DNA from: a virus
Strand: one strand, 5' to 3'
Length of the DNA: 15,795 nt
UHGV virus genome: UHGV-0205859
Shown: piece after piece, positions 1 to 14,807 of the stretch
Layout: each line of letters opens with the position of its first letter
Position numbering within the stretch: position 1 is the stretch's first letter
Translations under genes and position numbers: made by a program
Notes under the pieces: generated by a model
What the model was told of the DNA's origin: nothing
The model's input: the letters and a program-made list of their open reading frames with translations, nothing else
Databases searched by the model: none

Positions 1-410
1 ACCGTGATGGTACGGGTATCTGGACCATCTGCCGTGGTGCCACAATGGTGGACGGTAAGCCTGTCGTTCCTGGCATGAAGCTGACGAAGGAAAAATGCGA
101 CCGAGTGAACGCCATCGAACGGGATAAGGCGCTGACGTGGGTGGAGAAAAACATCAAAGTGCCACTGACCGAACCGCAGAAAGCGGGCATTGCGTCATTC
201 TGTCCGTACAACATCGGGCCTTCGAAATGCTTCACCTCAACGTTTTACCGGAAACTGAACGCCGGAGACCGGAAAGGTGCATGTGCTGAAATCCGCCGGT
301 GGATATATGACGGTGGCAAAGACTGCTGTATCCGCTCAAATAATTGCTACGGTCAGGTATCCCGGCGTGACCAGGAAAGTGCGCTGGCGTGCTGGGGAAT
401 CGACAGATAA
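1..410 (+). CDS. R: Phage endolysin (lysozyme, glycoside hydrolase family 24), 5'-truncated by the window edge
   Basis: Frame 3 is open from nt 3 (RDGTGIWTICRGATMVDGKPV...) and ends at TGA 408-410. The C-terminal region (FYRKLNAGDRKGACAEIRRWIYDGGK) resembles lambdoid prophage lysozymes of the RrrD/phage 21 R type as recalled. It sits immediately upstream of Rz/Rz1. Confidence 0.85.
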   Translation, partial: RDGTGIWTICRGATMVDGKPVVPGMKLTKEKCDRVNAIERDKALTWVEKNIKVPLTEPQKAGIASFCPYNIGPSKCFTSTFYRKLNAGDRKGACAEIRRWIYDGGKDCCIRSNNCYGQVSRRDQESALACWGIDR

Positions 411-629: not shown

Positions 630-749
630 ATGAAAGGCATTGAGGTGGAGACGCCAGCAAGTCTGGATTTAACAAGAGCGGCAGCAATTGCCATTCGTAT
701 TGTGGCAATTGCTGTTCTTGTCTGGGCAATCCCGTTGGTGGTGATATGA
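630..749 (+). CDS. Hypothetical 39-aa small membrane peptide ([39 protein letters not shown]), not in the ORF track because it is under 60 aa
   Basis: ATG at 630 is preceded by GAGG at 617-620. Its stop TGA (747-749) overlaps the Rz start (ATGA at 746-749), suggesting translational coupling. Acidic N-terminus followed by a roughly 20-residue hydrophobic stretch. An alternative in-frame GTG start at 591 lies downstream of GGGAGG. Confidence 0.3.
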
Positions 750-1213
750 ATCGTGTGCTGTATGGCGTGCTTATTGTCCTGCTGCTTGGTTGTGGAGCGA
801 TGTGGCTGGCAACAAACCATTACCGTGATAACGCCATTACCTACAAAGCGCAGCGCGATAACAAAGCCAGTGAACTGGAGAAAGCGAATGCAACCATTAC
901 TGACATGCAGCAGCGCCAGCGTGATGTTGCTGCACTCGATGCAAAATATACAAAGGAGTTAGCCGATGCAAAAGCTGAAAATGAAAATCTGCGCGCTGAT
1001 GTTGCCGCTGGCCGCCGCAGCCTGCGGGTCAACGCCACCTGTGTGCCCGCCACAGATAAAACCACCGGCACCACCCGCATGGGTAATGCAACCCGTCCCC
1101 GACTGGCAGACGCCGCTCAACGGAATTATTTCACCCTCAGAGAGCGACTGATGACGATGCAGAAACAACTGGAAGGGGCACAGCTCTACATCAGTGAGCA
1201 ATGCCTCAGATAA
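746..1213 (+). CDS. Rz: Rz i-spanin (inner-membrane spanin subunit)
   Basis: 155 aa with an N-terminal transmembrane segment and a coiled-coil periplasmic domain. The [19 protein letters not shown] and [20 protein letters not shown] motifs match lambda Rz as recalled. Confidence 0.9.
966..1151 (+). CDS. Rz1: Rz1 o-spanin (outer-membrane lipoprotein), nested in the +1 frame inside Rz
   Basis: 61-aa ORF wholly inside Rz in another frame. It has a signal peptide with a lipobox-like LAAAACGS and a proline-rich mature region ([27 protein letters not shown]) closely matching lambda Rz1 as recalled. Confidence 0.85.
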
Positions 1214-2608: not shown

Positions 2609-3085
2609 ATGGACGGCGAGCTGAAAAATATGAAGTTAAATATTAATCAACTGGCATCCCTTTCAGGCCTGCACCGGCAGACTGTTACCGCAAGAATGGC
2701 AGATGTTCCTCTTGCACCAGGCAGCAATGAGAAGAAAAAACTTTATTTCCTGACGGATTTGATTACCTCGCTGCTGGAAAAGCCACCATCCACCGAAGAT
2801 GAGGAGATGAATCCACACGATCGCAAGGCATGGTATCAGTCCGAGCGCGAGCGCCTTAAATTTCAGCATGAAACTGTTCAGCTTGTGCCCGTCAGTGATG
2901 TCAGGCGGTCGTTTTCCGTCGTGGTGAAAGCCATTGTGCAGATACTGGAAACCTGGCCTGACAGGCTGGAAAGGGACAGGGGGTGGACTGCATCACAACT
3001 GAACGAAGTGCAGATCGTTGTTGATGAGATCCGTGACACGCTGGAAAAGGCAGTGATTGCCTGCTGTGATGAGGCTGATATGTGA
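2609..3085 (+). CDS. Terminase small subunit (DNA-recognition subunit, Nu1-like role)
   Basis: 158 aa, GGAGG at 2596-2600. N-terminal helix-turn-helix-like segment (LNINQLASLSGLHRQTVTARMA). Its stop overlaps the large-subunit GTG start (GTGA). Position directly upstream of a GpA-type large terminase. Confidence 0.75.
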   Translation: MDGELKNMKLNINQLASLSGLHRQTVTARMADVPLAPGSNEKKKLYFLTDLITSLLEKPPSTEDEEMNPHDRKAWYQSERERLKFQHETVQLVPVSDVRRSFSVVVKAIVQILETWPDRLERDRGWTASQLNEVQIVVDEIRDTLEKAVIACCDEADM

Positions 3086-5205
3086 ATCCGGTTAACGAGT
3101 GCCATAGCCGCGCATCCGATATCTGGCGCGAAGTGGCCTCGCTGTTTCGCCCACCCAGCCGGTTACCTGTGGTGGAAGCCATCAGGCGTTATATGCGGGT
3201 ACCACGGGGAGCCAATACATCCGGTCCGTGGGAGTCATCGCTGACGCCCTATATGATAGACCCCATTAATACATTATCAGCCCGTGAATATGACGCGGTG
3301 GTGTTTGTCGGACCTGCGCGAACGGGCAAAACCGAGGGGCTGATTGACGGCTGGATTGTGTACGGCATCATCTGTGATCCGGCTGACATGCTGGTGGTGC
3401 AGATGACTGAGACGAAGGCGCGTGAGCATTCCAGAACGCGTCTTTCCAGGACGTTTCGCCACAGTCCGGAGGTCAGTAAGCGCCTCAGTCCTTCCCGTAA
3501 CGACAACAACGTCCACGACAAAATGTTTCTTGACGGCTCATTCCTGAAAATTGGCTGGCCGTCGATCACCGTATTTTCCTCCTCGGATTACCGTCGTGTG
3601 GCGCTGACGGATTATGACCGTTTCCCTGAAAACGTGGACGGGGAAGGGGATGCCTTCACCCTGGCCTCAAAGCGTACCACCACCTTTATGTCCTCCGGGA
3701 TGACCCTGGTTGAGAGTTCACCGGGGCGGGATATTACTGACACCAAATGGCGTTGTGGTGGCGCACATGAGGCACCGCCAACAACGGGGATCATGTCACT
3801 GTATAACCGGGGAGACCGCCGCCGGTGGTACTGGCCGTGTCCGCACTGCGGGGAATATTTTCAGCCGGTGATGGATAACATGACCGGTTACCGGAATAAC
3901 CCCGATTTTGTGGCTGCCGGTCAGGCTGCCCGTCTGATGTGTCCACACTGTCGCGGGCTGATTGCCCCGGAGCAGAAACGCGAACTGAATAACATGGGGA
4001 TCTGGCTGCGGGAAGGTGAGCGGGCGGCGGCGGATGGCAGTATCACTGGAACGCCACGAAATTCCAGGATAGCGAGCTTCTGGCTGGAGGGGCCAGCTGC
4101 CGCGTTTCAGACCTGGGAACAACTGATTTTTAAGCTGCTGTCGGCAGAAGAAGAATATGAGCGAACCGGCAGTGAAGAGACCCTGAAAGCGGTGGTGAAC
4201 ACCGATATCGGACGGCCTTATCTGCCCCGTTCAGCCACGGAACAGCGCAAAAGTGAGCTGCTTGAACAGCGTGCGGAGCCGGTTCCACTGCGATGTGTGC
4301 CGGATGGCGTGCGCTTCATTGAGGCAACGGTTGACGTACAGGGCGGTAAAAACAGCCGTTTTGTGGTGCAGATCACCGGATACGGAGAGCAGGGAGAACG
4401 CTGGATTGTTGATCGCTACAACATCCGGCATTCACTGCGCAGCAGCCCCAACGGTGAAAGCCTGCCGGTTGATCCGGCTGCGTATCCGGAAGACTGGACG
4501 TTGTTGCTGACGGATGTCTTCCATAAAACCTGGCCGCTGGCTTCCGATCCGGATGTTCGTATGCGTCTTATGGCGATGGCCGTGGATACGGGCGGTGAAG
4601 CAGGGGTGACGGATAATGCCTATCGTTTCTGGCGGCAGTGCCGCCGTGACGGACTGGGTAACCGGGTGTTTCTGTTCAAGGGCGATGGCCTGCGTCGCGA
4701 CAGACTGATTAACCGTACCTTCCCGGATAACACCGGCAGAAGTGCCCGCCGTGCCAGGGCCAGTGGTGATGTTGCCCTGTGGCTGGTGCAGACCGATGCG
4801 TTTAAGGATCGGGTGAATAATGCGCTGTGGCGTGACACGCCGGGACCGAATTATATCCACTTTCCTGACTGGCTGGGGCGGTGGTTTTTCGATGAGCTGA
4901 CCTATGAGGAGCGCGGCAGTGACGGAAAATGGCGAAAGCCGGGCAGGGGCGCTAACGAAGCATTTGACCTGCTGGTCTACGCGGATGCGCTTGCCGTTCT
5001 GCATGGCTACGAAAAGATCCGCTGGCCGTCAGCACCTGACTGGGCACAACGGGAAACGTGGCTTGTCGGTCCGGAGGGGCGTTCAGATGCGACAACGCCC
5101 ACGGCGTCGTCAGGAAGGAAAGAAAAATGCCGTCACCGGCAGGAAAAACTGCGCACAGAGCGGGCAGAGGATAATCCGTGGGTAACATCAGGAGGCTGGT
5201 TGTGA
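3082..5205 (+). CDS. A: Terminase large subunit, lambda GpA family
   Basis: 707 aa with GTG start overlapping the small-subunit stop. Walker A motif GPARTGKT (aa 77-84). Size and position are typical of GpA-type terminases of cos phages. Confidence 0.9.
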   Translation: MNPVNECHSRASDIWREVASLFRPPSRLPVVEAIRRYMRVPRGANTSGPWESSLTPYMIDPINTLSAREYDAVVFVGPARTGKTEGLIDGWIVYGIICDPADMLVVQMTETKAREHSRTRLSRTFRHSPEVSKRLSPSRNDNNVHDKMFLDGSFLKIGWPSITVFSSSDYRRVALTDYDRFPENVDGEGDAFTLASKRTTTFMSSGMTLVESSPGRDITDTKWRCGGAHEAPPTTGIMSLYNRGDRRRWYWPCPHCGEYFQPVMDNMTGYRNNPDFVAAGQAARLMCPHCRGLIAPEQKRELNNMGIWLREGERAAADGSITGTPRNSRIASFWLEGPAAAFQTWEQLIFKLLSAEEEYERTGSEETLKAVVNTDIGRPYLPRSATEQRKSELLEQRAEPVPLRCVPDGVRFIEATVDVQGGKNSRFVVQITGYGEQGERWIVDRYNIRHSLRSSPNGESLPVDPAAYPEDWTLLLTDVFHKTWPLASDPDVRMRLMAMAVDTGGEAGVTDNAYRFWRQCRRDGLGNRVFLFKGDGLRRDRLINRTFPDNTGRSARRARASGDVALWLVQTDAFKDRVNNALWRDTPGPNYIHFPDWLGRWFFDELTYEERGSDGKWRKPGRGANEAFDLLVYADALAVLHGYEKIRWPSAPDWAQRETWLVGPEGRSDATTPTASSGRKEKCRHRQEKLRTERAEDNPWVTSGGWL

Positions 5206-5414
5206 GTATTGATGATGTCAGGAACATGATACAGCGGTATCGCGATGCGGAAATGGCGGTACTGGAGGGAAAATCTGTCACGTTTAACGGGCAGCAACTG
5301 ACGCTGGAAAGTCTGTCACAGATCCGCGCCGGTCGTCAGGAGTGGGAGCGAAGACTTACGGCGATGGTGAACCGCAGACGCGGGGAGCCCGGGTTTAAAC
5401 TGGCGAGGTTCTGA
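5202..5414 (+). CDS. W: Head-tail joining protein gpW
   Basis: 70 aa from GTG 5202, with AGGAGG at 5190-5195 and overlap with the terminase stop (GTGA). The C-terminal RRRGEPGF resembles lambda W RRRGPAGF as recalled. The ORF-track start at 5178 is an upstream in-frame GTG without a Shine-Dalgarno sequence. Confidence 0.8.
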   Translation: MSIDDVRNMIQRYRDAEMAVLEGKSVTFNGQQLTLESLSQIRAGRQEWERRLTAMVNRRRGEPGFKLARF

Positions 5415-6919
5415 TGGCGATTAGCGATGATGTGATTGGTTTTTTCTCGCCCGGCTGGAAAGCAGCGCGATTACGCTCAAGGGCGTTAATTATGGCCTAT
5501 GAGGCCGTGAAACCCACCAGGACGCATAAAGCACGCCGGGAAAACCGTTCTGCCGATCAGCTCAGTAAATACGGTGCGGTTTCCCTTCGGGAGCAGGCCC
5601 GCTTTCTGGATATCAATCATGACCTGGTGATAGGCGTGTTTGACAAGCTGGAGGAGCGGGTGATTGGTGCGAAGGGGATCACCGTTGAGCCTAATCCGGT
5701 GATGAAAAACGGGGAGATTGCGGCGGAGCTGGCAGCGGATATCCGGCGGTTGTGGGCAGAATGGTCTGTCAGTCCGGATGTGACCGGACAGTACACCCGT
5801 CCCATGCTCGAACGCCTGTTACTGCGTACCTGGCTGCGTGACGGGGAGGTGTTTGCGCAGATGGTCAGTGGTGCGGCAAACGGTCTTAAGCGGTCTGCCG
5901 GTGTGCCTTTCTGGCTTGAGGCGATGGAGCCGGATTTTGTGCCCATGCGCAGTGATGAGTCTGCCGGACTGAATCAAGGCGTTTTTCTGGATGAGTGGGG
6001 GAGGCCGAAAAAATATCTGGTTTACAAAAATTATCCGGTTTCCGGGATACAGAGTGATACCAAAGAGATCGCCGCAGACAAAATGGTGCATCTGAAATTC
6101 ACCCGCCGCCTGCACCAGACGCGTGGTGCGTCCATGTTGTCCGGTGTGATGGTGCGTATCAGTGCGCTTAAGGAATATGAAGATGCCGAACTGACAGCGG
6201 CGCGTATTGCTGCGGCGCTGGGGCTGTATATCCGTAAGGGGGATGGACAGGATTACGACGATCAGGGAGCAGACAAAAAAGAAGAGCGGGAAGTGCATAT
6301 CACCCCGGGCATTATCTATGACGATTTGCGTAAGGGTGAGGATATCGGCATGGTCAAATCCGACCGTCCTAATCCAAATCTTGAAAATTTTCGTAATGGT
6401 CAGTTGCGTGCGGTGGCTGCAGGCAGTCGTCTGAGCTTTTCCAGTACCGCACGCAACTACAATGGCACCTACAGTTCACAGCGGCAGGAGCTGGTCGAGT
6501 CCACCGACGGTTACCTTATCCTGCAGGACTGCTTTATTGGCGCGGTAACCCGCCCGGTGTACCGTGCATGGCTGAATATGGTGGTTGCTGCCGGTCTGCT
6601 GAAAATCCCGTCTTGCCTGGATATGAAGACGTTATATAACGCGACATATTCAGGTCCGGTGATGCCGTGGATAGATCCGGTTAAGGAGGCTGAAGCCTGG
6701 CGGATACAGATCCGGGGTGGTGCCGCAACGGAATCCGACTGGGTACGTGCCGGCGGACGTCATCCGGATGAGGTTAAACGTCGCCGCAAGGCTGAAATTG
6801 ATGAAAACTGCAGACTGGGGCTGGTCTTTGATACTGACCCCGTCAACGACAAAGGAGGCAACAGTGCCGGAACTGAACGACAGCGTCAACAGGCCACCGA
6901 CAGCCAGCATGAAGAATAA
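5414..6919 (+). CDS. B: Portal protein (lambda gpB family)
   Basis: 501 aa; ATG overlaps the W stop (TGATG). Size and position between W and the capsid gene fit a portal; weak motif resemblance to lambda B. Confidence 0.85.
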   Translation: MAISDDVIGFFSPGWKAARLRSRALIMAYEAVKPTRTHKARRENRSADQLSKYGAVSLREQARFLDINHDLVIGVFDKLEERVIGAKGITVEPNPVMKNGEIAAELAADIRRLWAEWSVSPDVTGQYTRPMLERLLLRTWLRDGEVFAQMVSGAANGLKRSAGVPFWLEAMEPDFVPMRSDESAGLNQGVFLDEWGRPKKYLVYKNYPVSGIQSDTKEIAADKMVHLKFTRRLHQTRGASMLSGVMVRISALKEYEDAELTAARIAAALGLYIRKGDGQDYDDQGADKKEEREVHITPGIIYDDLRKGEDIGMVKSDRPNPNLENFRNGQLRAVAAGSRLSFSSTARNYNGTYSSQRQELVESTDGYLILQDCFIGAVTRPVYRAWLNMVVAAGLLKIPSCLDMKTLYNATYSGPVMPWIDPVKEAEAWRIQIRGGAATESDWVRAGGRHPDEVKRRRKAEIDENCRLGLVFDTDPVNDKGGNSAGTERQRQQATDSQHEE

Positions 6920-8888
6920 ATCCTGGTTCAGGATGCAGGCTGGGGAGCCGGGTGACGCGGATATTTATATTTATGACGAGATTGGTTTCTGGGGAGTTAC
7001 CGCGAAGCAGTTTGTCTGCGATCTGAATGCTCTGGGTGATATCACCCACATTAATCTCCATATCAACTCACCGGGTGGCGATGTCTTTGAAGGCATCGCC
7101 ATTTTTAATGCCCTGAAAAATCAGGGGGCGACCATTACCGTGTATGTGGATGGCGTTGCCGCATCGATGGCATCCGTGATTGCGATGGCCGGTGATACGG
7201 TCATTATGCCGGAAAATGCTTTCATGATGATCCATAAGCCATGGGGTTTCAGTGGGGGGGATGCTGAGGATATGCGCAGTTATGCCGATCTGCTGGATAA
7301 AGTCGAATCGGTACTGTTGCCAGCCTATGCGCAAAAAACAGGAAAAACCACCGATGAAATTGCCGCCATGCTGGCGGATGAGACCTGGATGTCAGGTGCC
7401 GAGTGTCTGGCACACGGATTTGCTGACCAGGTGACGCCAGCCGTTAAGGCAATGGCATGTATTCAGTCAAAACGTACAGAGGAATTTAAAAAGATGCCGG
7501 AATCCATCCGAAACATGATTACTCCGCCACGCAACAGTGCCCCGCGTGATACCACAGTGACAATCCCTGCACCGGCGGTAACAGAACCATCACCGGTACC
7601 GGCAGTGTCTGATGAGGAGACCATTCGCGCTGGTGTCCTGGCTGAGCAGAAAGCCCGCATGTCAGGCATTAACGATCTGTTTGCCATGTTTGGCGGTCGC
7701 TATCAGACGCTTCAGGCACAGTGCGTGGCCGATCCTGACTGTTCGCTGGAAATGGCCCGTGAACGTCTGCTGAATGAAATGGGTAAGGAATCCTCGCCGA
7801 CCAACAAAAACACACCGGCCCATATTTATGCCGGAAACGGTAATTTTGTTGGAGACGGGATCCGCAAGGCGCTGATGGCCCGCGCCGGATTTGAGACTAC
7901 GGAGAAGGATAATGCCTATAACGGTATGACCCTGCGTGAATGCGCCCGTATGTCACTGACAGAGCGGGGGATCGGGGTGGCCAGTTATAACCCCATGCAG
8001 ATGGTGGGGCTGGCGCTGACGCACAGTACCTCAGATTTTGGCAATATTCTGCTGGATGTGTCGAATAAGGGGTTAATCCAGGGCTGGGAGGAATCAGAAG
8101 AAACCTTCCAGAAATGGACCCGCAAAGGTCGCCTGTCTGACTTCAAAACGGCATACCGTGTGGGGATGGGGGGATTTGGCTCTCTGCGTCAGGTGCGGGA
8201 AGGGGCAGAGTACAAGTACATCACCACCTCAGATCGTAAGGAGACCATTGCACTGGCGACCTACGGGGAAATTTTCTCCATCACCCGTCAGGCCATTATC
8301 AATGATGACCTGAATATGCTGGTTGATGTCCCGATGAAGATGGGGCGTGCCGCGAAAGCGACGATTGGTGATTTGGTCTACAAGGTGTTAACGGATAACC
8401 CGAAACTGTCAGACGGTAAGGCGTTGTTCCATGCCGATCACAAGAATATTGCCACGGGCGGGATTTCCGTTTCGGGGCTGGATGCGGCACGTCAGATGAT
8501 GCGCCTGCAGAAAGAGGGCGATCGTGCGCTGAATATCCGTCCGGCCTTTATGCTGGTACCGGTGGCGCTGGAGACGGTGGCAAACCAGACCATCAAGTCG
8601 GCCAGTGTGAAAGGGGCGGATGCAAACGCCGGTGTCATTAACCCGATCCAGAACTTTGCCGAAGTGATTGCGGAAGCTCGTCTTGATGCGGCAGATCCGA
8701 AAACCTGGTACCTGGCTGCGGCACAGGGGACCGACACCATTGAAGTGGCCTGGCTTGATGGTGTGGACACTCCCTACATTGACCAGCAGGAAGGCTTCAC
8801 CACTGACGGTATCGCCACAAAAATCCGTATCGATGCCGGTGTGGCACCGCTTGACTGGCGCGGACTGGTGCGTTCAGCCGCTGCCTGA
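6909..8888 (+). CDS. Fused prohead protease (ClpP/S49-like), scaffold-like linker and major capsid protein
   Basis: N-terminal region carries ClpP-like protease motifs (DIYIYDEIGFWGV, INSPGGDVFEGIAIFNAL, ASMASVIAMAGD), then a Pro/Ala/Glu-rich linker, then a roughly 330-aa C-terminal capsid-like domain. Start ATG 6909 is chosen just upstream of the protease motifs; ATG 6933 and the ORF-track start 6717 are alternatives. Confidence 0.8.
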   Translation: MKNKSWFRMQAGEPGDADIYIYDEIGFWGVTAKQFVCDLNALGDITHINLHINSPGGDVFEGIAIFNALKNQGATITVYVDGVAASMASVIAMAGDTVIMPENAFMMIHKPWGFSGGDAEDMRSYADLLDKVESVLLPAYAQKTGKTTDEIAAMLADETWMSGAECLAHGFADQVTPAVKAMACIQSKRTEEFKKMPESIRNMITPPRNSAPRDTTVTIPAPAVTEPSPVPAVSDEETIRAGVLAEQKARMSGINDLFAMFGGRYQTLQAQCVADPDCSLEMARERLLNEMGKESSPTNKNTPAHIYAGNGNFVGDGIRKALMARAGFETTEKDNAYNGMTLRECARMSLTERGIGVASYNPMQMVGLALTHSTSDFGNILLDVSNKGLIQGWEESEETFQKWTRKGRLSDFKTAYRVGMGGFGSLRQVREGAEYKYITTSDRKETIALATYGEIFSITRQAIINDDLNMLVDVPMKMGRAAKATIGDLVYKVLTDNPKLSDGKALFHADHKNIATGGISVSGLDAARQMMRLQKEGDRALNIRPAFMLVPVALETVANQTIKSASVKGADANAGVINPIQNFAEVIAEARLDAADPKTWYLAAAQGTDTIEVAWLDGVDTPYIDQQEGFTTDGIATKIRIDAGVAPLDWRGLVRSAAA

Positions 8889-8910
8889 TAAGCACTGCGT
8901 CTCTATCACT

Positions 8911-8929
8911 GCCCGAAAGGGCTTTTTTT
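8911..8929 (+). terminator. Candidate intrinsic terminator (attenuator) downstream of the capsid gene
   Basis: GCCC-GAAA-GGGC hairpin with a GNRA loop (8911-8922) followed by T7 (8923-8929), 23 nt after the capsid stop. Confidence 0.45.
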
Positions 8930-8974
8930 ATGCCTGAAAACAGCCCCGTCGGGGCTGTCCGGAGATACAGCATT

Positions 8975-9301
8975 ATGGCTAAAAATTTTGTACAGGACGG
9001 CACCACCATTGAACTGGTGAATGCCGGGGATCAAAGCATTCTTAGCGGTGCCGCAGTGGTGGTCGGCAGCATGGTGGCGGTGGCCATTACCGATATTCCT
9101 GCCGGGGAGACCGGTGACGGGTTCGCCGAAGGCGTGTTCCTGCTGCCAAAACAGTCTGCCGATGATATTCAGGCCGGTATGGTTGTTTATCTGAAGGACG
9201 GGATTGTGCAGCCTGCCGCAGACGGCGCAGTGGCGGCGGGGATGGCATGGGAGCATGCGCCGTCAGGCAGCACCACGGTGGCGGTCAAAATCAATGCCTG
9301 A
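8975..9301 (+). CDS. Putative head decoration protein (DUF2190-like small capsid-associated protein)
   Basis: 108 aa from ATG 8975, with GGAG at 8961-8964. Gly/Ala/Val-rich small protein directly downstream of the capsid gene. The ORF-track start at 8930 lacks an RBS and overlaps the terminator T-run. Confidence 0.5.
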   Translation: MAKNFVQDGTTIELVNAGDQSILSGAAVVVGSMVAVAITDIPAGETGDGFAEGVFLLPKQSADDIQAGMVVYLKDGIVQPAADGAVAAGMAWEHAPSGSTTVAVKINA

Positions 9302-11378: not shown

Positions 11379-11396
11379 TTATCCCGGAGTGAATTT

Positions 11397-12211: not shown

Positions 12212-14807
12212 TTTTGCAGATCTGACAGCAATTCTTACCCTGGATTCCACCCGTTTTTCTGAAGAAATGGGGCGGGTGAAAAAATCGCTGGGCGAAACCA
12301 GTTCACTGGCAGACACGATGTCAGGAAAGGTCAGCCAGTCCTTAAAAAAACCGGCAGAGGTGATTGAACAGAGTCTGAGCCGTCAGGCTGTTGCCGCGCA
12401 GAAGGCGGGGATATCCATCGGGCAGTATAAAGCTGCCATGCGGACACTGCCCGCCCAGTTCACGGATATTGCCACTCAGCTTGCCGGTGGTCAGAGTCCG
12501 TGGTTGATCCTGCTGCAGCAGGGCGGGCAGATTAAGGACTCCTTTGGTGGTCTTGTCCCGATGTTCAGGAGCCTTGCTGGTGCGATCACACTACCTGCTG
12601 TCGGGATCACATCACTGGTCGCAGCGACCGGTGCGCTGGCGTATGCCTGGTACCAGGGGGATTCAGTCCTGTCTGAATTCAATAAAACCCTGGTTCTTTC
12701 CGGTAATCAGTCCGGACTGACCGCCGATCGCATGCTGACTCTCTCCAGAGCCGGACAGGCAGCAGGGCTGACGTTTAACCAGACCAGCGAGTCTCTGACG
12801 GCGCTGGTAAATGCCGGTGTGCGTGGGGGAGAACAGTTTGACGCCATCAGCCAGAGTGTGGCGCGTTTTTCGTCTGCATCCGGCGTGGAGGTGGACAAAG
12901 TCGCTGAGGCCTTCGGGAAGCTGACCACTGACCCGACCTCGGGGCTGACGGCGATGGCGCACCAGTTCCATAACGTGACGGCGGAGCAGATTGCGTATGT
13001 GGCTCAGTTGCAGCGTTCCGGCGATGAGGCCGGAGCGTTACAGGCCGCGCACGAAGCCGCCACCAGAGGATTCGATGAGCAGACCCGCCGCCTGAAAGCG
13101 AATATGGGCACGCTGGAGACCTGGGCGGATAAGGTCGGCAGTGCGTTCAAATCCATGTGGGATGCAGTGCTGGATATCGGGCGTCCTGAGTCATCTGCAG
13201 AAATGCTGGATAAGGCACAGCAGGCATTCGATGAGGCGGATAAAAAATGGCAATGGTATCAGAGTCGCAGCCACCGTCGCGGAAAAACATCCTCCTTCCG
13301 TGCCAATCTTCAGGGCGCATGGGATGACCGCGAAAACGCCCGCCTCGGTCTTTCAGCGGCGACACTGCAGGCAGACCTGGAAAAAGCCAGCGAAATGGCG
13401 GCACGGGATCGGGCCGTATCGGAGGCGTCACGGCTGAAATATACCGAAGAGGCGCAGAAGGCTTACGAACGCCTGCAGTCTCCACTGGAGAAATATACCG
13501 CCCGTCAGGAGGAACTGAATAAGGCACTGAAAGACGGGAAAATCCTGCAGGCGGATTACAACACGCTGATGGCGGCGGCGAAAAAGGACTATGAGTCAAC
13601 GCTGAAAAAGCCGAAACAGTCTGGCGTGAAAGTGTCTGCAGGCGAGCGTCAGGAGGACAACTCCCGTACAGAACTGCTGACGCTGCAGACTGAACTCAGG
13701 ACACTCCAGGCGCACGCTGGTGCGAATGAGAAAATCAGTCAGCAGCGCCGGGATTTGTGGAAGGCAGAAAGTCAGTACGCGGTACTGGCGGAGGCGGCAC
13801 AACGTCGCCAGCTGTCCGTACAGGAGAAATCCCTGCTGGCGCATAAAGACGAAACGCTGGAATACAAACGCCAGCTGGCTGATCTGGGCGACAAGGTTGA
13901 ATACCAGAAACGCCTGAATGAGCTGGCGGATCAGGCGGAGAAATTTGCACAGCAGCAGAGTGCAAAACAGGCTGCCATCAGTGCAAAAGCCCGTGGGCTG
14001 ACAGACCGGCAGGCGCAGCGGGAGTCGGAAGAACAACGGTTGCGCGAGGTGTATGGCGACAATCCGCAGGCGCTGGCGAAGGCAACCGGTGCGCTGAAAC
14101 AGACATGGGCTGCTGAAGACCAGCTGAGTGGCAGCTGGACAGCCGGACTTAAATCGGGCTGGAGCCAGTGGGCTGAAAGTGCGATGGACAGTTTTTCGCA
14201 GGTGAAAAGTGTTGCCACGCAGACCTTCGACGGGATTGCGCAGAATATGGCGGCGATGCTGACCGGCAGTGAGCAGAACTGGCGCAGCTTTACCCGTTCC
14301 GTGCTGTCCATGATGACGGAAATTCTGCTTAAGCAGGCCATGGTGGGGATTGTCGGGAGTATCGGCAGTGCCATTGGCGGAGCCATTGGTGGTGCATCTG
14401 CTTCCACAGGAACCGCCATTCAGGCTGCGGCGGCGAACTTCCATTTTGCAACCGGAGGATTTACGGGAACCGGAGGCAAATATGAGCCGGCGGGGATTGT
14501 TCACCGTGGTGAGTTTGTGTTCACGAAGGAGGCAACCAGCCGGATTGGTGTGGGGAATCTGTACCGTCTGATGCGGGGATATGCGGATGGGGGCTATGTG
14601 GGTGGTGCCGGAAGTCAGGCTCAGATGCGGCGGGCAGACGTCATTAATTTTAATCAGAATAACAATGTGGTGATTCAGAATGACGGTATCAACGGACAGG
14701 CCGGTCCGCAGATGATGAGGGCGGTATATGACATGGCCCGTAAGGGTGCCCGTGATGAACTCCAGGCACAGATGCGTGACGGCGGACTGTTCTCCGGAGG
14801 TGGCTGA
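12201..14807 (+). CDS. H: Tail tape measure protein gpH
   Basis: About 868 aa from ATG 12201, with AGGAGG at 12186-12191. Long stretches match lambda H as recalled (for example QYKAAMR.LPAQFTD.ATQLAGGQSPWLILLQQGG and the C-terminal RDGGLFSGGG). The ORF-track start is an upstream GTG at 12192. Confidence 0.9.
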   Translation: MSGNFADLTAILTLDSTRFSEEMGRVKKSLGETSSLADTMSGKVSQSLKKPAEVIEQSLSRQAVAAQKAGISIGQYKAAMRTLPAQFTDIATQLAGGQSPWLILLQQGGQIKDSFGGLVPMFRSLAGAITLPAVGITSLVAATGALAYAWYQGDSVLSEFNKTLVLSGNQSGLTADRMLTLSRAGQAAGLTFNQTSESLTALVNAGVRGGEQFDAISQSVARFSSASGVEVDKVAEAFGKLTTDPTSGLTAMAHQFHNVTAEQIAYVAQLQRSGDEAGALQAAHEAATRGFDEQTRRLKANMGTLETWADKVGSAFKSMWDAVLDIGRPESSAEMLDKAQQAFDEADKKWQWYQSRSHRRGKTSSFRANLQGAWDDRENARLGLSAATLQADLEKASEMAARDRAVSEASRLKYTEEAQKAYERLQSPLEKYTARQEELNKALKDGKILQADYNTLMAAAKKDYESTLKKPKQSGVKVSAGERQEDNSRTELLTLQTELRTLQAHAGANEKISQQRRDLWKAESQYAVLAEAAQRRQLSVQEKSLLAHKDETLEYKRQLADLGDKVEYQKRLNELADQAEKFAQQQSAKQAAISAKARGLTDRQAQRESEEQRLREVYGDNPQALAKATGALKQTWAAEDQLSGSWTAGLKSGWSQWAESAMDSFSQVKSVATQTFDGIAQNMAAMLTGSEQNWRSFTRSVLSMMTEILLKQAMVGIVGSIGSAIGGAIGGASASTGTAIQAAAANFHFATGGFTGTGGKYEPAGIVHRGEFVFTKEATSRIGVGNLYRLMRGYADGGYVGGAGSQAQMRRADVINFNQNNNVVIQNDGINGQAGPQMMRAVYDMARKGARDELQAQMRDGGLFSGGG

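Follow-up and report, generated by a model that had tools for sequence, protein, structure and literature searches.

The late operon around the capsid-decoration junction

The window, the whole stretch of 15,795 nt of viral genome UHGV-0205859 that was analysed, belongs to the late region of a lambdoid prophage. Its main features are listed in Table 1. The closest annotated relative, the E. coli prophage L211, shows 98.4% identity over a query of 451 bases (8700-9150) and has the same gene order; the start of the capsid fusion gene was transferred from its PGAP annotation. The start codon of the cement gene, coding for the head decoration protein, is fixed by the conserved N-terminus MAKNFVQDG, and lambda-like tail genes follow on its 3' side. 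The succession of capsid and decoration genes, proposed by an earlier reading of the sequence only, was confirmed by Pfam. At the capsid-decoration junction, the identity of the window with Stx phages, VT1-Sakai among them, is about 88%, and the element described below is found in Shiga-toxin prophages (VT1-Sakai, Stx2 phages). In Sp15/VT1-Sakai (AP000400.1, minus strand), hairpin 1 is located at about 23216-23205 and the T run at about 23204-23198.

Table 1. Features of the window. Positions are counted from the first nucleotide of the window.
Feature	Position	Strand	Description
Lysozyme gene	45-410		
Rz	746-1213		
Small terminase	2609-3085		DUF1441
Large terminase	3082-5205		
Portal	5414-6919		
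ClpP-like prohead protease/scaffold/major capsid fusion gene	6909-8888	+	Pfam PF00574 and PF25209; stop codon TGA at 8886-8888
Variable 3'UTR spacer	8889-8910	+	22 nt from stop codon to hairpin 1; length conserved among relatives (20-29 nt), sequence not
Anti-SD-like stretch	8895-8904	+	Lineage-specific; CUG.GUCUCU can pair with GGAGAU.CAG (8961-8970) in the whole-gap minimum free energy fold
Hairpin 1	8911-8922	+	Four G-C pairs and a tetraloop: GCCC 8911-8914, GAAA 8915-8918, GGGC 8919-8922
T7 (U7) tract	8923-8929	+	Directly abutting hairpin 1
A/U-rich linker	8930-8939	+	ATGCCTGAAA; family consensus AT-R-Y-C-T-R-AAA
Hairpin 2	8940-8958	+	ACAGCCCC-GTC-GGGGCTGT; perfect 8-bp stem
Shine-Dalgarno (SD) of the cement gene	8961-8964	+	GGAG; 2 nt past hairpin 2, 10 nt before the ATG
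Cement/head decoration gene	8975-9301	+	DUF2190 (PF09956); ATG at 8975

The spacing of the late genes was read by mapping the L211 annotation onto the window. The 86-nt gap between the capsid and decoration genes (8889-8974) is the only sizeable one in the late operon, all other junctions being either overlapping or not larger than 20 nt. In L211 a Q-type antitermination gene is located about 13 kb upstream of the capsid gene, and for this reason transcription of the operon by Q-modified polymerase is almost certain. A promoter scan revealed no promoter-like site within the gap, nor upstream, at the end of the capsid gene. Three further candidate features of the linker were discarded. An internal promoter is not indicated, as no sigma-70-like site was found by the scan and the TATGCC/TATACC sequences lack the final T. 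A resemblance to an IHF site was dismissed since, by eye, the motif WATCAA-N4-TTR is absent. The in-frame ATG at 8930 would open a longer decoration ORF (8930-9301), but it probably does not serve as a start: most relatives have ATA in its place, it has no SD, and the MAKNF N-terminus is the conserved one.

Elsewhere in the window, an AT-rich block (1489-2300) separates the Rz and small terminase genes. It contains a DUF1398 gene on the minus strand (1489-1920) and a strong terminator-like hairpin, also on the minus strand (2256-2238), followed by T8. As the interval between lysis and terminase genes is only about 450 bp in L211, the block looks like a moron-type insertion.

Folding and conservation of the gap

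Two hairpins occupy the central part of the gap. The positions assigned by the sequence-only reading to hairpin 1 with its T tract (8911-8929), and to the GGAG just 3' of hairpin 2, proved to be correct. The inverted repeat described there as a 7-bp stem (CAGCCCC-gtc-GGGGCTG, 8941-8957) is present, but the stem is extended to 8 bp by an additional pair, A8940-T8958. The same reading had indicated a comparison of folding energies with shuffled controls as a check, and both hairpins, as well as the whole gap, fold better than the controls. The energy calculated for hairpin 1 is -7.9 kcal/mol (z -2.8), a value reached by 2 of 200 shuffles, while none of 200 shuffles was as good as hairpin 2 (-15.9 kcal/mol, z -3.8) or the whole gap (-31.8 kcal/mol, z -3.4). 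In the fold composed of the two hairpins, the U7 tract and the A/U-rich AUGCCUGAAA are left unpaired, and hairpin 2 is interposed between this tract and the SD.

The frequency expected by chance was evaluated for both types of structure. GC-rich 4-bp hairpins followed by at least six T residues are expected 0.083 times per shuffled window, both strands considered, and two were found; the other one, TCGC-CCA-GCGA followed by a T run (12279-12295, minus strand), lies inside the tape-measure gene and is probably due to chance. Perfect 8-bp hairpins are expected 1.18 times per window, and again two were found, the other being AAAACAGA-gtcact-TCTGTTTT at 2563-2584, located 25 nt upstream of the small terminase gene, where a cos site is expected. 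Since a perfect 8-bp hairpin is thus expected about once per window, hairpin 2 is unremarkable when one sequence is considered alone. Within 15.8 kb only the combination of hairpin and T run is unusual, so that the decisive evidence is comparative. Hairpin 1 is not listed by a consensus terminator scan of the window, because the scan requires a minimum of 5 pairs and hairpin 1 has 4. No Rfam family matched the window at gathering scores, and none matched the region 8800-9050 up to E = 10.

Relatives were gathered from public genomes and viral contigs by searching with the cement protein, also in the form of a profile built on a 5-sequence alignment, from viral contigs by a DNA pattern search, and finally by a covariance model, R1, constructed from the collected sequences. 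All together, 53 distinct versions of a bipartite element, composed of the two hairpins, were obtained from E. coli, Providencia, Proteus, Sodalis and uncultured phages. Exactly one is present at each locus, always at the junction between the capsid fusion gene and the DUF2190 gene. In the window, R1 produces a single strong match (8903-8973, 75.7 bits). Many of the 53 versions were retrieved by a pattern requiring GGGC+T7+AT.YCTRAAA, and invariance at those positions was therefore judged only on loci identified by protein; at these loci the T run ranges from T5 to T8 and is almost always T7.

Conservation was measured as mean pairwise identity among 7 lineages found by protein alone, and thus unbiased by the DNA pattern. 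Values of 0.73 for the end of the capsid gene, 0.46 for the 3'UTR spacer, 0.88 for hairpin 1 with the T run and the next 10 nt, 0.56 for the hairpin 2 region, 0.68 for the segment from SD to ATG and 0.65 for the start of the cement gene were obtained. Hairpin 1, with the T run and the following 10 nt, is therefore the best conserved DNA of the neighbourhood, the flanking coding sequences reaching only 0.65-0.73. The GGAG is nearly invariant in the alignment of the relatives. As judged from these sequences, the first half of the element is conserved as sequence and the second half as structure.

Four arrangements are observed at the cement-gene junction. Distant relatives show either a tiny gap with no hairpin, or one GC hairpin without a T run, or a classical hairpin with a T run, followed by about 12-18 A-rich nt and the SD, without hairpin 2. 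The fourth arrangement, the bipartite element, is found in Enterobacterales phages only. In some distant relatives, unrelated hairpins with T runs occupy the same position of the junction. Six viral contigs (L222-L226 and L231) carry a different, longer terminator hairpin and lack hairpin 2, yet the hairpin is followed by T-run-ATG(C/T)CTA or TTTATCCCTAAAA; the ATRYCT motif after the T run may accordingly predate the bipartite element.

Unrelated terminators matching GGGC-T7-ATNYCTRAAA also occur elsewhere in phages (integrase, tail fibre and tape-measure contexts); they seem to fit the pattern by chance and were not considered members. Two viral contigs, L164 (1589-1684) and L099, show a comparable layout upstream of an integrase-like or tail-fibre-like gene: a terminator hairpin of 8 bp with T7 is followed by ATACCTAAAAA, by a larger structured segment and by CCTGGAGAAAA-ATG. 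They score 36-38 bits with R1, by convergence or by chance.

Structure of hairpin 2 and of the decoration-gene leader

Inconsistent registers of hairpin 2 were produced by MAFFT and by the model-based alignment, and its stems were consequently analyzed also by an alignment-free procedure. The variants comprise 26 distinct stems of 5 to 8 pairs and 40 loops, including seven UUCG and several GNRA loops. The two arms of the same variant pair with a mean energy of -12.35 kcal/mol, compared with -6.91 kcal/mol when arms are swapped between variants. In the model-based alignment, which retains register errors lowering the paired fraction, 33 double-change cells were counted, against 13.8 ± 2.7 in shuffled alignments, none of 500 being as high. 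Double changes affect five of the eight pairs, and the true register is the best of the 7 compared. Hairpin 2 shows, in other words, the compensatory changes by which a conserved structured RNA is recognized.

The behaviour of hairpin 1 is different. Its GCCC/GGGC stem is found in all 53 versions, with one G-U pair (Sodalis), around 14 different loops, and this invariance provides covariation evidence neither for nor against pairing. Invariance would be expected if the pairing were needed, since a stem of four pairs, all G-C, could not pass through intermediates with single mismatches.

Read in the plus sense, the 26 hairpin 2 stems contain nine G·U pairs at internal positions and not a single A·C there; on the minus strand the nine would be mismatched as A·C, and the folds of several variants become 3-6 kcal/mol less stable. 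The restriction of G·U pairs to the plus sense identifies plus-strand RNA as the selected molecule, rather than DNA or an antisense transcript.

In the minimum free energy (MFE) fold of the whole gap, hairpins 1 and 2 pair with each other, giving one long imperfect hairpin. This arrangement was rejected as the functional fold, as its covariation is lower than that of shuffles: in the 53-sequence alignment 11 compensatory changes were found versus 18.7 in shuffles, with 500 of 500 shuffles as high. Its outer helix falls in the unconserved 3'UTR, and the fold is regarded as a by-product of two GC-rich palindromes built of the same letters. An RNase III processing site was also discarded, since about 20 bp or more of double-stranded RNA are needed, whereas the stems have 4 and 8 bp, and the extended alternative fold is not conserved.

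In transcripts reading through the gap, hairpin 2 would form a stable local hairpin ending 1-3 nt before the SD. By locking up the GC-rich leader, it would prevent the competing pairing of hairpin 1 with hairpin 2, and the U7/A-rich linker and the SD would stay single-stranded at its sides. Hairpin 2 might therefore act as the structural boundary of the translation initiation region of the decoration gene, and not as an occluder. Neither hairpin 2 nor the conserved linker is annotated in any of the records examined, including those of mEp043 and mEp460.

Termination, antitermination and alternative readings

Hairpin 1 shares with canonical E. coli intrinsic terminators a GC-rich hairpin on the transcribed strand, followed by a tract of seven U past the stop codon. 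The U tract, within the range of about 7-9 nt located 0-2 nt from the stem, directly abuts it, and the hairpin starts 22 nt past the capsid stop codon; in the gap, a GC hairpin abutting U7 is present on the coding strand only. The stem of 4 pairs is minimal, at or below the usual lower limit, and this is a point against a terminator; moreover, genes of the operon located downstream of it must be expressed, at variance with canonical terminators. The conserved block extends from the 5' edge of hairpin 1 to a point some 10 nt beyond the U tract and is preceded by an unconserved 3'UTR of constant length. Both boundaries agree with the properties of intrinsic terminators, whose extent includes the downstream duplex, and whose hairpin is kept clear of the terminating ribosome by a constant, unconserved spacer. 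A terminator-like reading fits all the computable features of hairpin 1; it offers no specific reason why the linker (ATRYCTRAAA) is so strictly conserved.

Hairpin 1 is a previously predicted feature. A homologous GCCC-N4-GGGC hairpin with T7, at the same junction between the ClpP/capsid fusion and DUF2190 genes and in the same orientation, is present in the lambdoid phages mEp043 c-1, mEp213, mEp460 and Ayreon. The GenBank entries of mEp043 c-1 and mEp460 label it a rho-independent terminator; for mEp213 and Ayreon the label is known from the match table only. These records annotate hairpin 1 alone, apparently as a prediction and not from experiment, although mEp460 carries hairpin 2 as well. 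The mEp460 record (L213) also reports a second rho-independent terminator directly after the major tail gene (5917-5940, GCCCCGG-UUAU-UCGGGGC followed by U6 and then by an SD), unlike the window, where the corresponding junction is an 18-nt gap (11379-11396) with no hairpin. The literature yielded nothing specific on experimentally tested terminators after the capsid genes of lambdoid or Stx phages.

A similar layout is found in lambda (NC_001416), also inside a Q-antiterminated late operon. The gap between D and E (6080-6134) contains a short GC hairpin (-14.5 kcal/mol, z -2.7) with U7 and then another U7 beside the start codon of E, and a 7-bp hairpin with a UUCG loop is located right after E (7161-7201), 11 nt before the SD of FI. 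The resemblance is one of analogy only: the sequences are not homologous, the genes stand in the opposite order, with D before E, and the hairpins lie in two separate gaps. To our knowledge, no function has been assigned to the D-E and E-FI hairpins.

The boxB of the lambda nut site (GCCCUGAAAAAGGGC) has, like hairpin 1, a GCCC/GGGC stem and a purine-rich loop of the GNRA type. It differs in the stem, of 5 bp instead of 4, and in its location in an early rather than a late operon; the 14 loops of hairpin 1 include many which are not GNRA. No boxA-like sequence was seen upstream of hairpin 1 by eye, in a comparison with the consensus. A lambda-type nut site was ruled out on the basis of the variable loop, the unconserved upstream 3'UTR and the late operon.

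From the structures observed, their strand, conservation and position, we infer termination at hairpin 1 and an effect on translation or stability. The best reading, tentatively preferred at slightly less than an even chance, is a leaky intrinsic terminator within a Q-antiterminated operon, combined with a hairpin in the leader of the decoration gene. The terminator, of a minimal Rho-independent type, would comprise hairpin 1, its U7 tract and some 10 nt of DNA further downstream, and is expected to be leaky because it has only four G-C pairs. It would stop or attenuate RNA polymerase that is not, or not fully, modified by Q, thus providing a 3' end for the head-gene message, and it might act, perhaps mildly, on Q-modified polymerase too. 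Q-modified polymerase would otherwise read through into the decoration and tail genes. In Q-loaded polymerase the RNA exit channel is narrowed and the formation of a terminator hairpin is precluded (PMC9388147; bioRxiv 10.1101/651190). Given the Q-type antiterminator upstream, termination may be weak during lytic growth, when the signal of hairpin 1 may do little.

The element had been proposed by the sequence-only reading to be a partial terminator or stability element, setting the ratio of capsid to downstream expression. The terminator or stability part is reasonable, given the terminator-like features and the conservation of hairpin 1, and was partly anticipated by the annotation in relatives; a role in setting the ratio is less obvious. 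By analogy with lambda gpD, the decoration protein encoded next would presumably be needed in amounts like those of the capsid protein, and this argues against a simple attenuator; the same may be said of the analogous hairpin-U7 of lambda, which precedes E.

The first alternative, itself unlikely, is a processing and stability module. The read-through RNA would be cut, for example by RNase E, in the A/U-rich linker; hairpin 1 would guard the 3' end of the capsid message, and hairpin 2 would become the 5' stem-loop of the decoration and tail message, so that the two lifetimes could differ. Two stable hairpins do flank a conserved, A/U-rich, single-stranded linker of constant length (10-12 nt), and the UUCG and GNRA loops of hairpin 2, with its GC-rich stems of 6-8 bp, indicate selection for stability. 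Such a module would be compatible with Q antitermination, and the distant relatives that often keep a GC hairpin with no T run fit protection better than termination. However, an abutting U7 is not necessary for 3' protection, yet it is strictly kept. A 4-bp hairpin would also be a weak barrier to exonucleases, and cleavage in the linker would leave several unpaired nt 5' of hairpin 2, thus weakening 5' protection.

Somewhat less probable still is a translation enhancer, where U7 and the A/U-rich linker would serve as a platform for ribosomal protein S1 or for ribosome standby at the decoration gene. The look of a terminator would be incidental, and hairpin 2 would shorten the distance between platform and SD. 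The leader of rnd likewise has a terminator-like hairpin and a U run upstream of the SD; there, Zhang and Deutscher reportedly found in 1992 that translation depends on a hairpin with U8 after it. A/U-rich tracts upstream of SD sequences boost initiation cooperatively with the SD (PMC2176067), and the element likewise has such a tract, predicted to be single-stranded, before a strong SD. The element differs from both systems in that a stable hairpin 2 separates the U run from the SD. Where relatives lack hairpin 2, about 12-18 nt lie between T run and SD, and the through-space distance would be similar here with hairpin 2 folded. The arrangement of lambda, where the hairpin-U7 precedes E and another U7 comes after it, beside the AUG, points in the same direction, and the decoration protein plausibly requires high translation, uncoupled after a gap of 86 nt. 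Against an enhancer, a GC hairpin exactly abutting the U tract is not required by it, yet the junction is invariant. Furthermore, when hairpin 2 was altered in silico, the predicted accessibility of the SD changed slightly and inconsistently across variants, its mean being 0.49 with the hairpin intact, 0.55 when disrupted and 0.43 when deleted.

A hairpin with a U tail is also the canonical 3' module of Hfq-binding RNAs. Hairpin 1 with U7 could in principle play this role in a small RNA derived from the 3'UTR, arising at the end of the capsid gene by cleavage or by transcription; this appears quite improbable. EHEC prophages do encode multicopy Hfq-binding sRNAs in their late regions, as in the case of HnrS, of 66 nt, which ends with an intrinsic terminator and pairs with the AGAAG ribosome-binding site of hha (PMC13502914). 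However, the 3'UTR, which would carry the seed, is the least conserved segment (0.46), and a promoter-like site is absent upstream, at the end of the capsid gene. Identity with HnrS itself was judged unlikely: a CUUCU seed, as its pairing would need, is absent from 8860-8929, and reports of HnrS concern Sp9, Sp10 and Sp12, not the capsid-decoration module.

The sequence-only reading had further suggested that the structured region may occlude and tune the start of translation of the next gene. Riboregulation of this kind, in which structure hides the ribosome-binding site of the decoration gene, is very unlikely. Complementary sequences are available: GUCUCU (8899-8904) can pair with GGAGAU (8961-8966) in the window and in the identical relative L011, and in many variants the linker contains CCU(G), complementary to (C)AGG at the SD. 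Nevertheless, the GGAG is located 0-4 nt outside the stem of hairpin 2 in all the variants that could be parsed, and neither the SD nor the start codon lies inside a conserved helix, as they would in an SD-sequestering operator or a riboswitch-like element. The anti-SD stretch belongs to the unconserved 3'UTR and is absent from most relatives (in L001 the SD is unpaired with a probability of 0.74), and the long-range fold covaries less than shuffles do. By partition function, the predicted SD accessibility ranges from 0.02 to 0.98 across 67 variants, with a mean of 0.49 for full and 0.58 for 5'-truncated sequences. The window is an outlier, the probability of an unpaired SD being 0.02 in the full transcript versus 0.67 in an RNA starting after the T run, owing to its private anti-SD stretch. 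The complementarity of 8895-8904 with 8961-8970 is shared by the window and L011 and is absent from other lineages. As the SD is always outside hairpin 2 and its accessibility varies between lineages, a conserved occlusion is not supported by these predictions.

Finally, a DNA-level element, or a minus-strand terminator blocking antisense transcription into the capsid gene, where hairpin 2 is followed by UUUUCAGG and folds about as well (-16.2 kcal/mol), is largely refuted by the strand asymmetry described above, and the T run of such a terminator is only 3 long in most relatives (GAAAT or GAAAC).

The gap thus harbours an intercistronic RNA element in two parts, which is real and conserved and belongs to a familiar kind, the ordinary punctuation of a phage operon. 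What is new is only hairpin 2, conserved and covarying, and the tight coupling of the two parts. There is a small chance that the hairpin-U7-linker and the covarying hairpin form a dedicated intercistronic RNA module of the ClpP-capsid-fusion phages of Enterobacterales, acting post-transcriptionally despite Q. It could be a processing site, separating a long-lived capsid message from a separately controlled decoration and tail message, or the source of an Hfq-bound RNA from the capsid 3'UTR. If either were true, the module would represent a definable RNA family that is new, and not a generic terminator.

In practical terms the value is modest: the annotation of prophage late regions can be improved, and hairpin 2 is a candidate new RNA motif, for which the covariance model R1 is available. 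Owing to the presence of the element in Shiga-toxin prophages, public Term-seq, Hfq and RNase E datasets for EHEC bear on its function. A paradox is raised as to why intrinsic terminator signals are kept in operons that are read by terminator-resistant, Q-modified polymerase. If the preferred reading, of a leaky terminator followed by a leader hairpin, is right, the element would be a widely conserved example of how temperate phages punctuate one long late operon, with a weak terminator signal after the most heavily expressed gene and a structured leader before the next.
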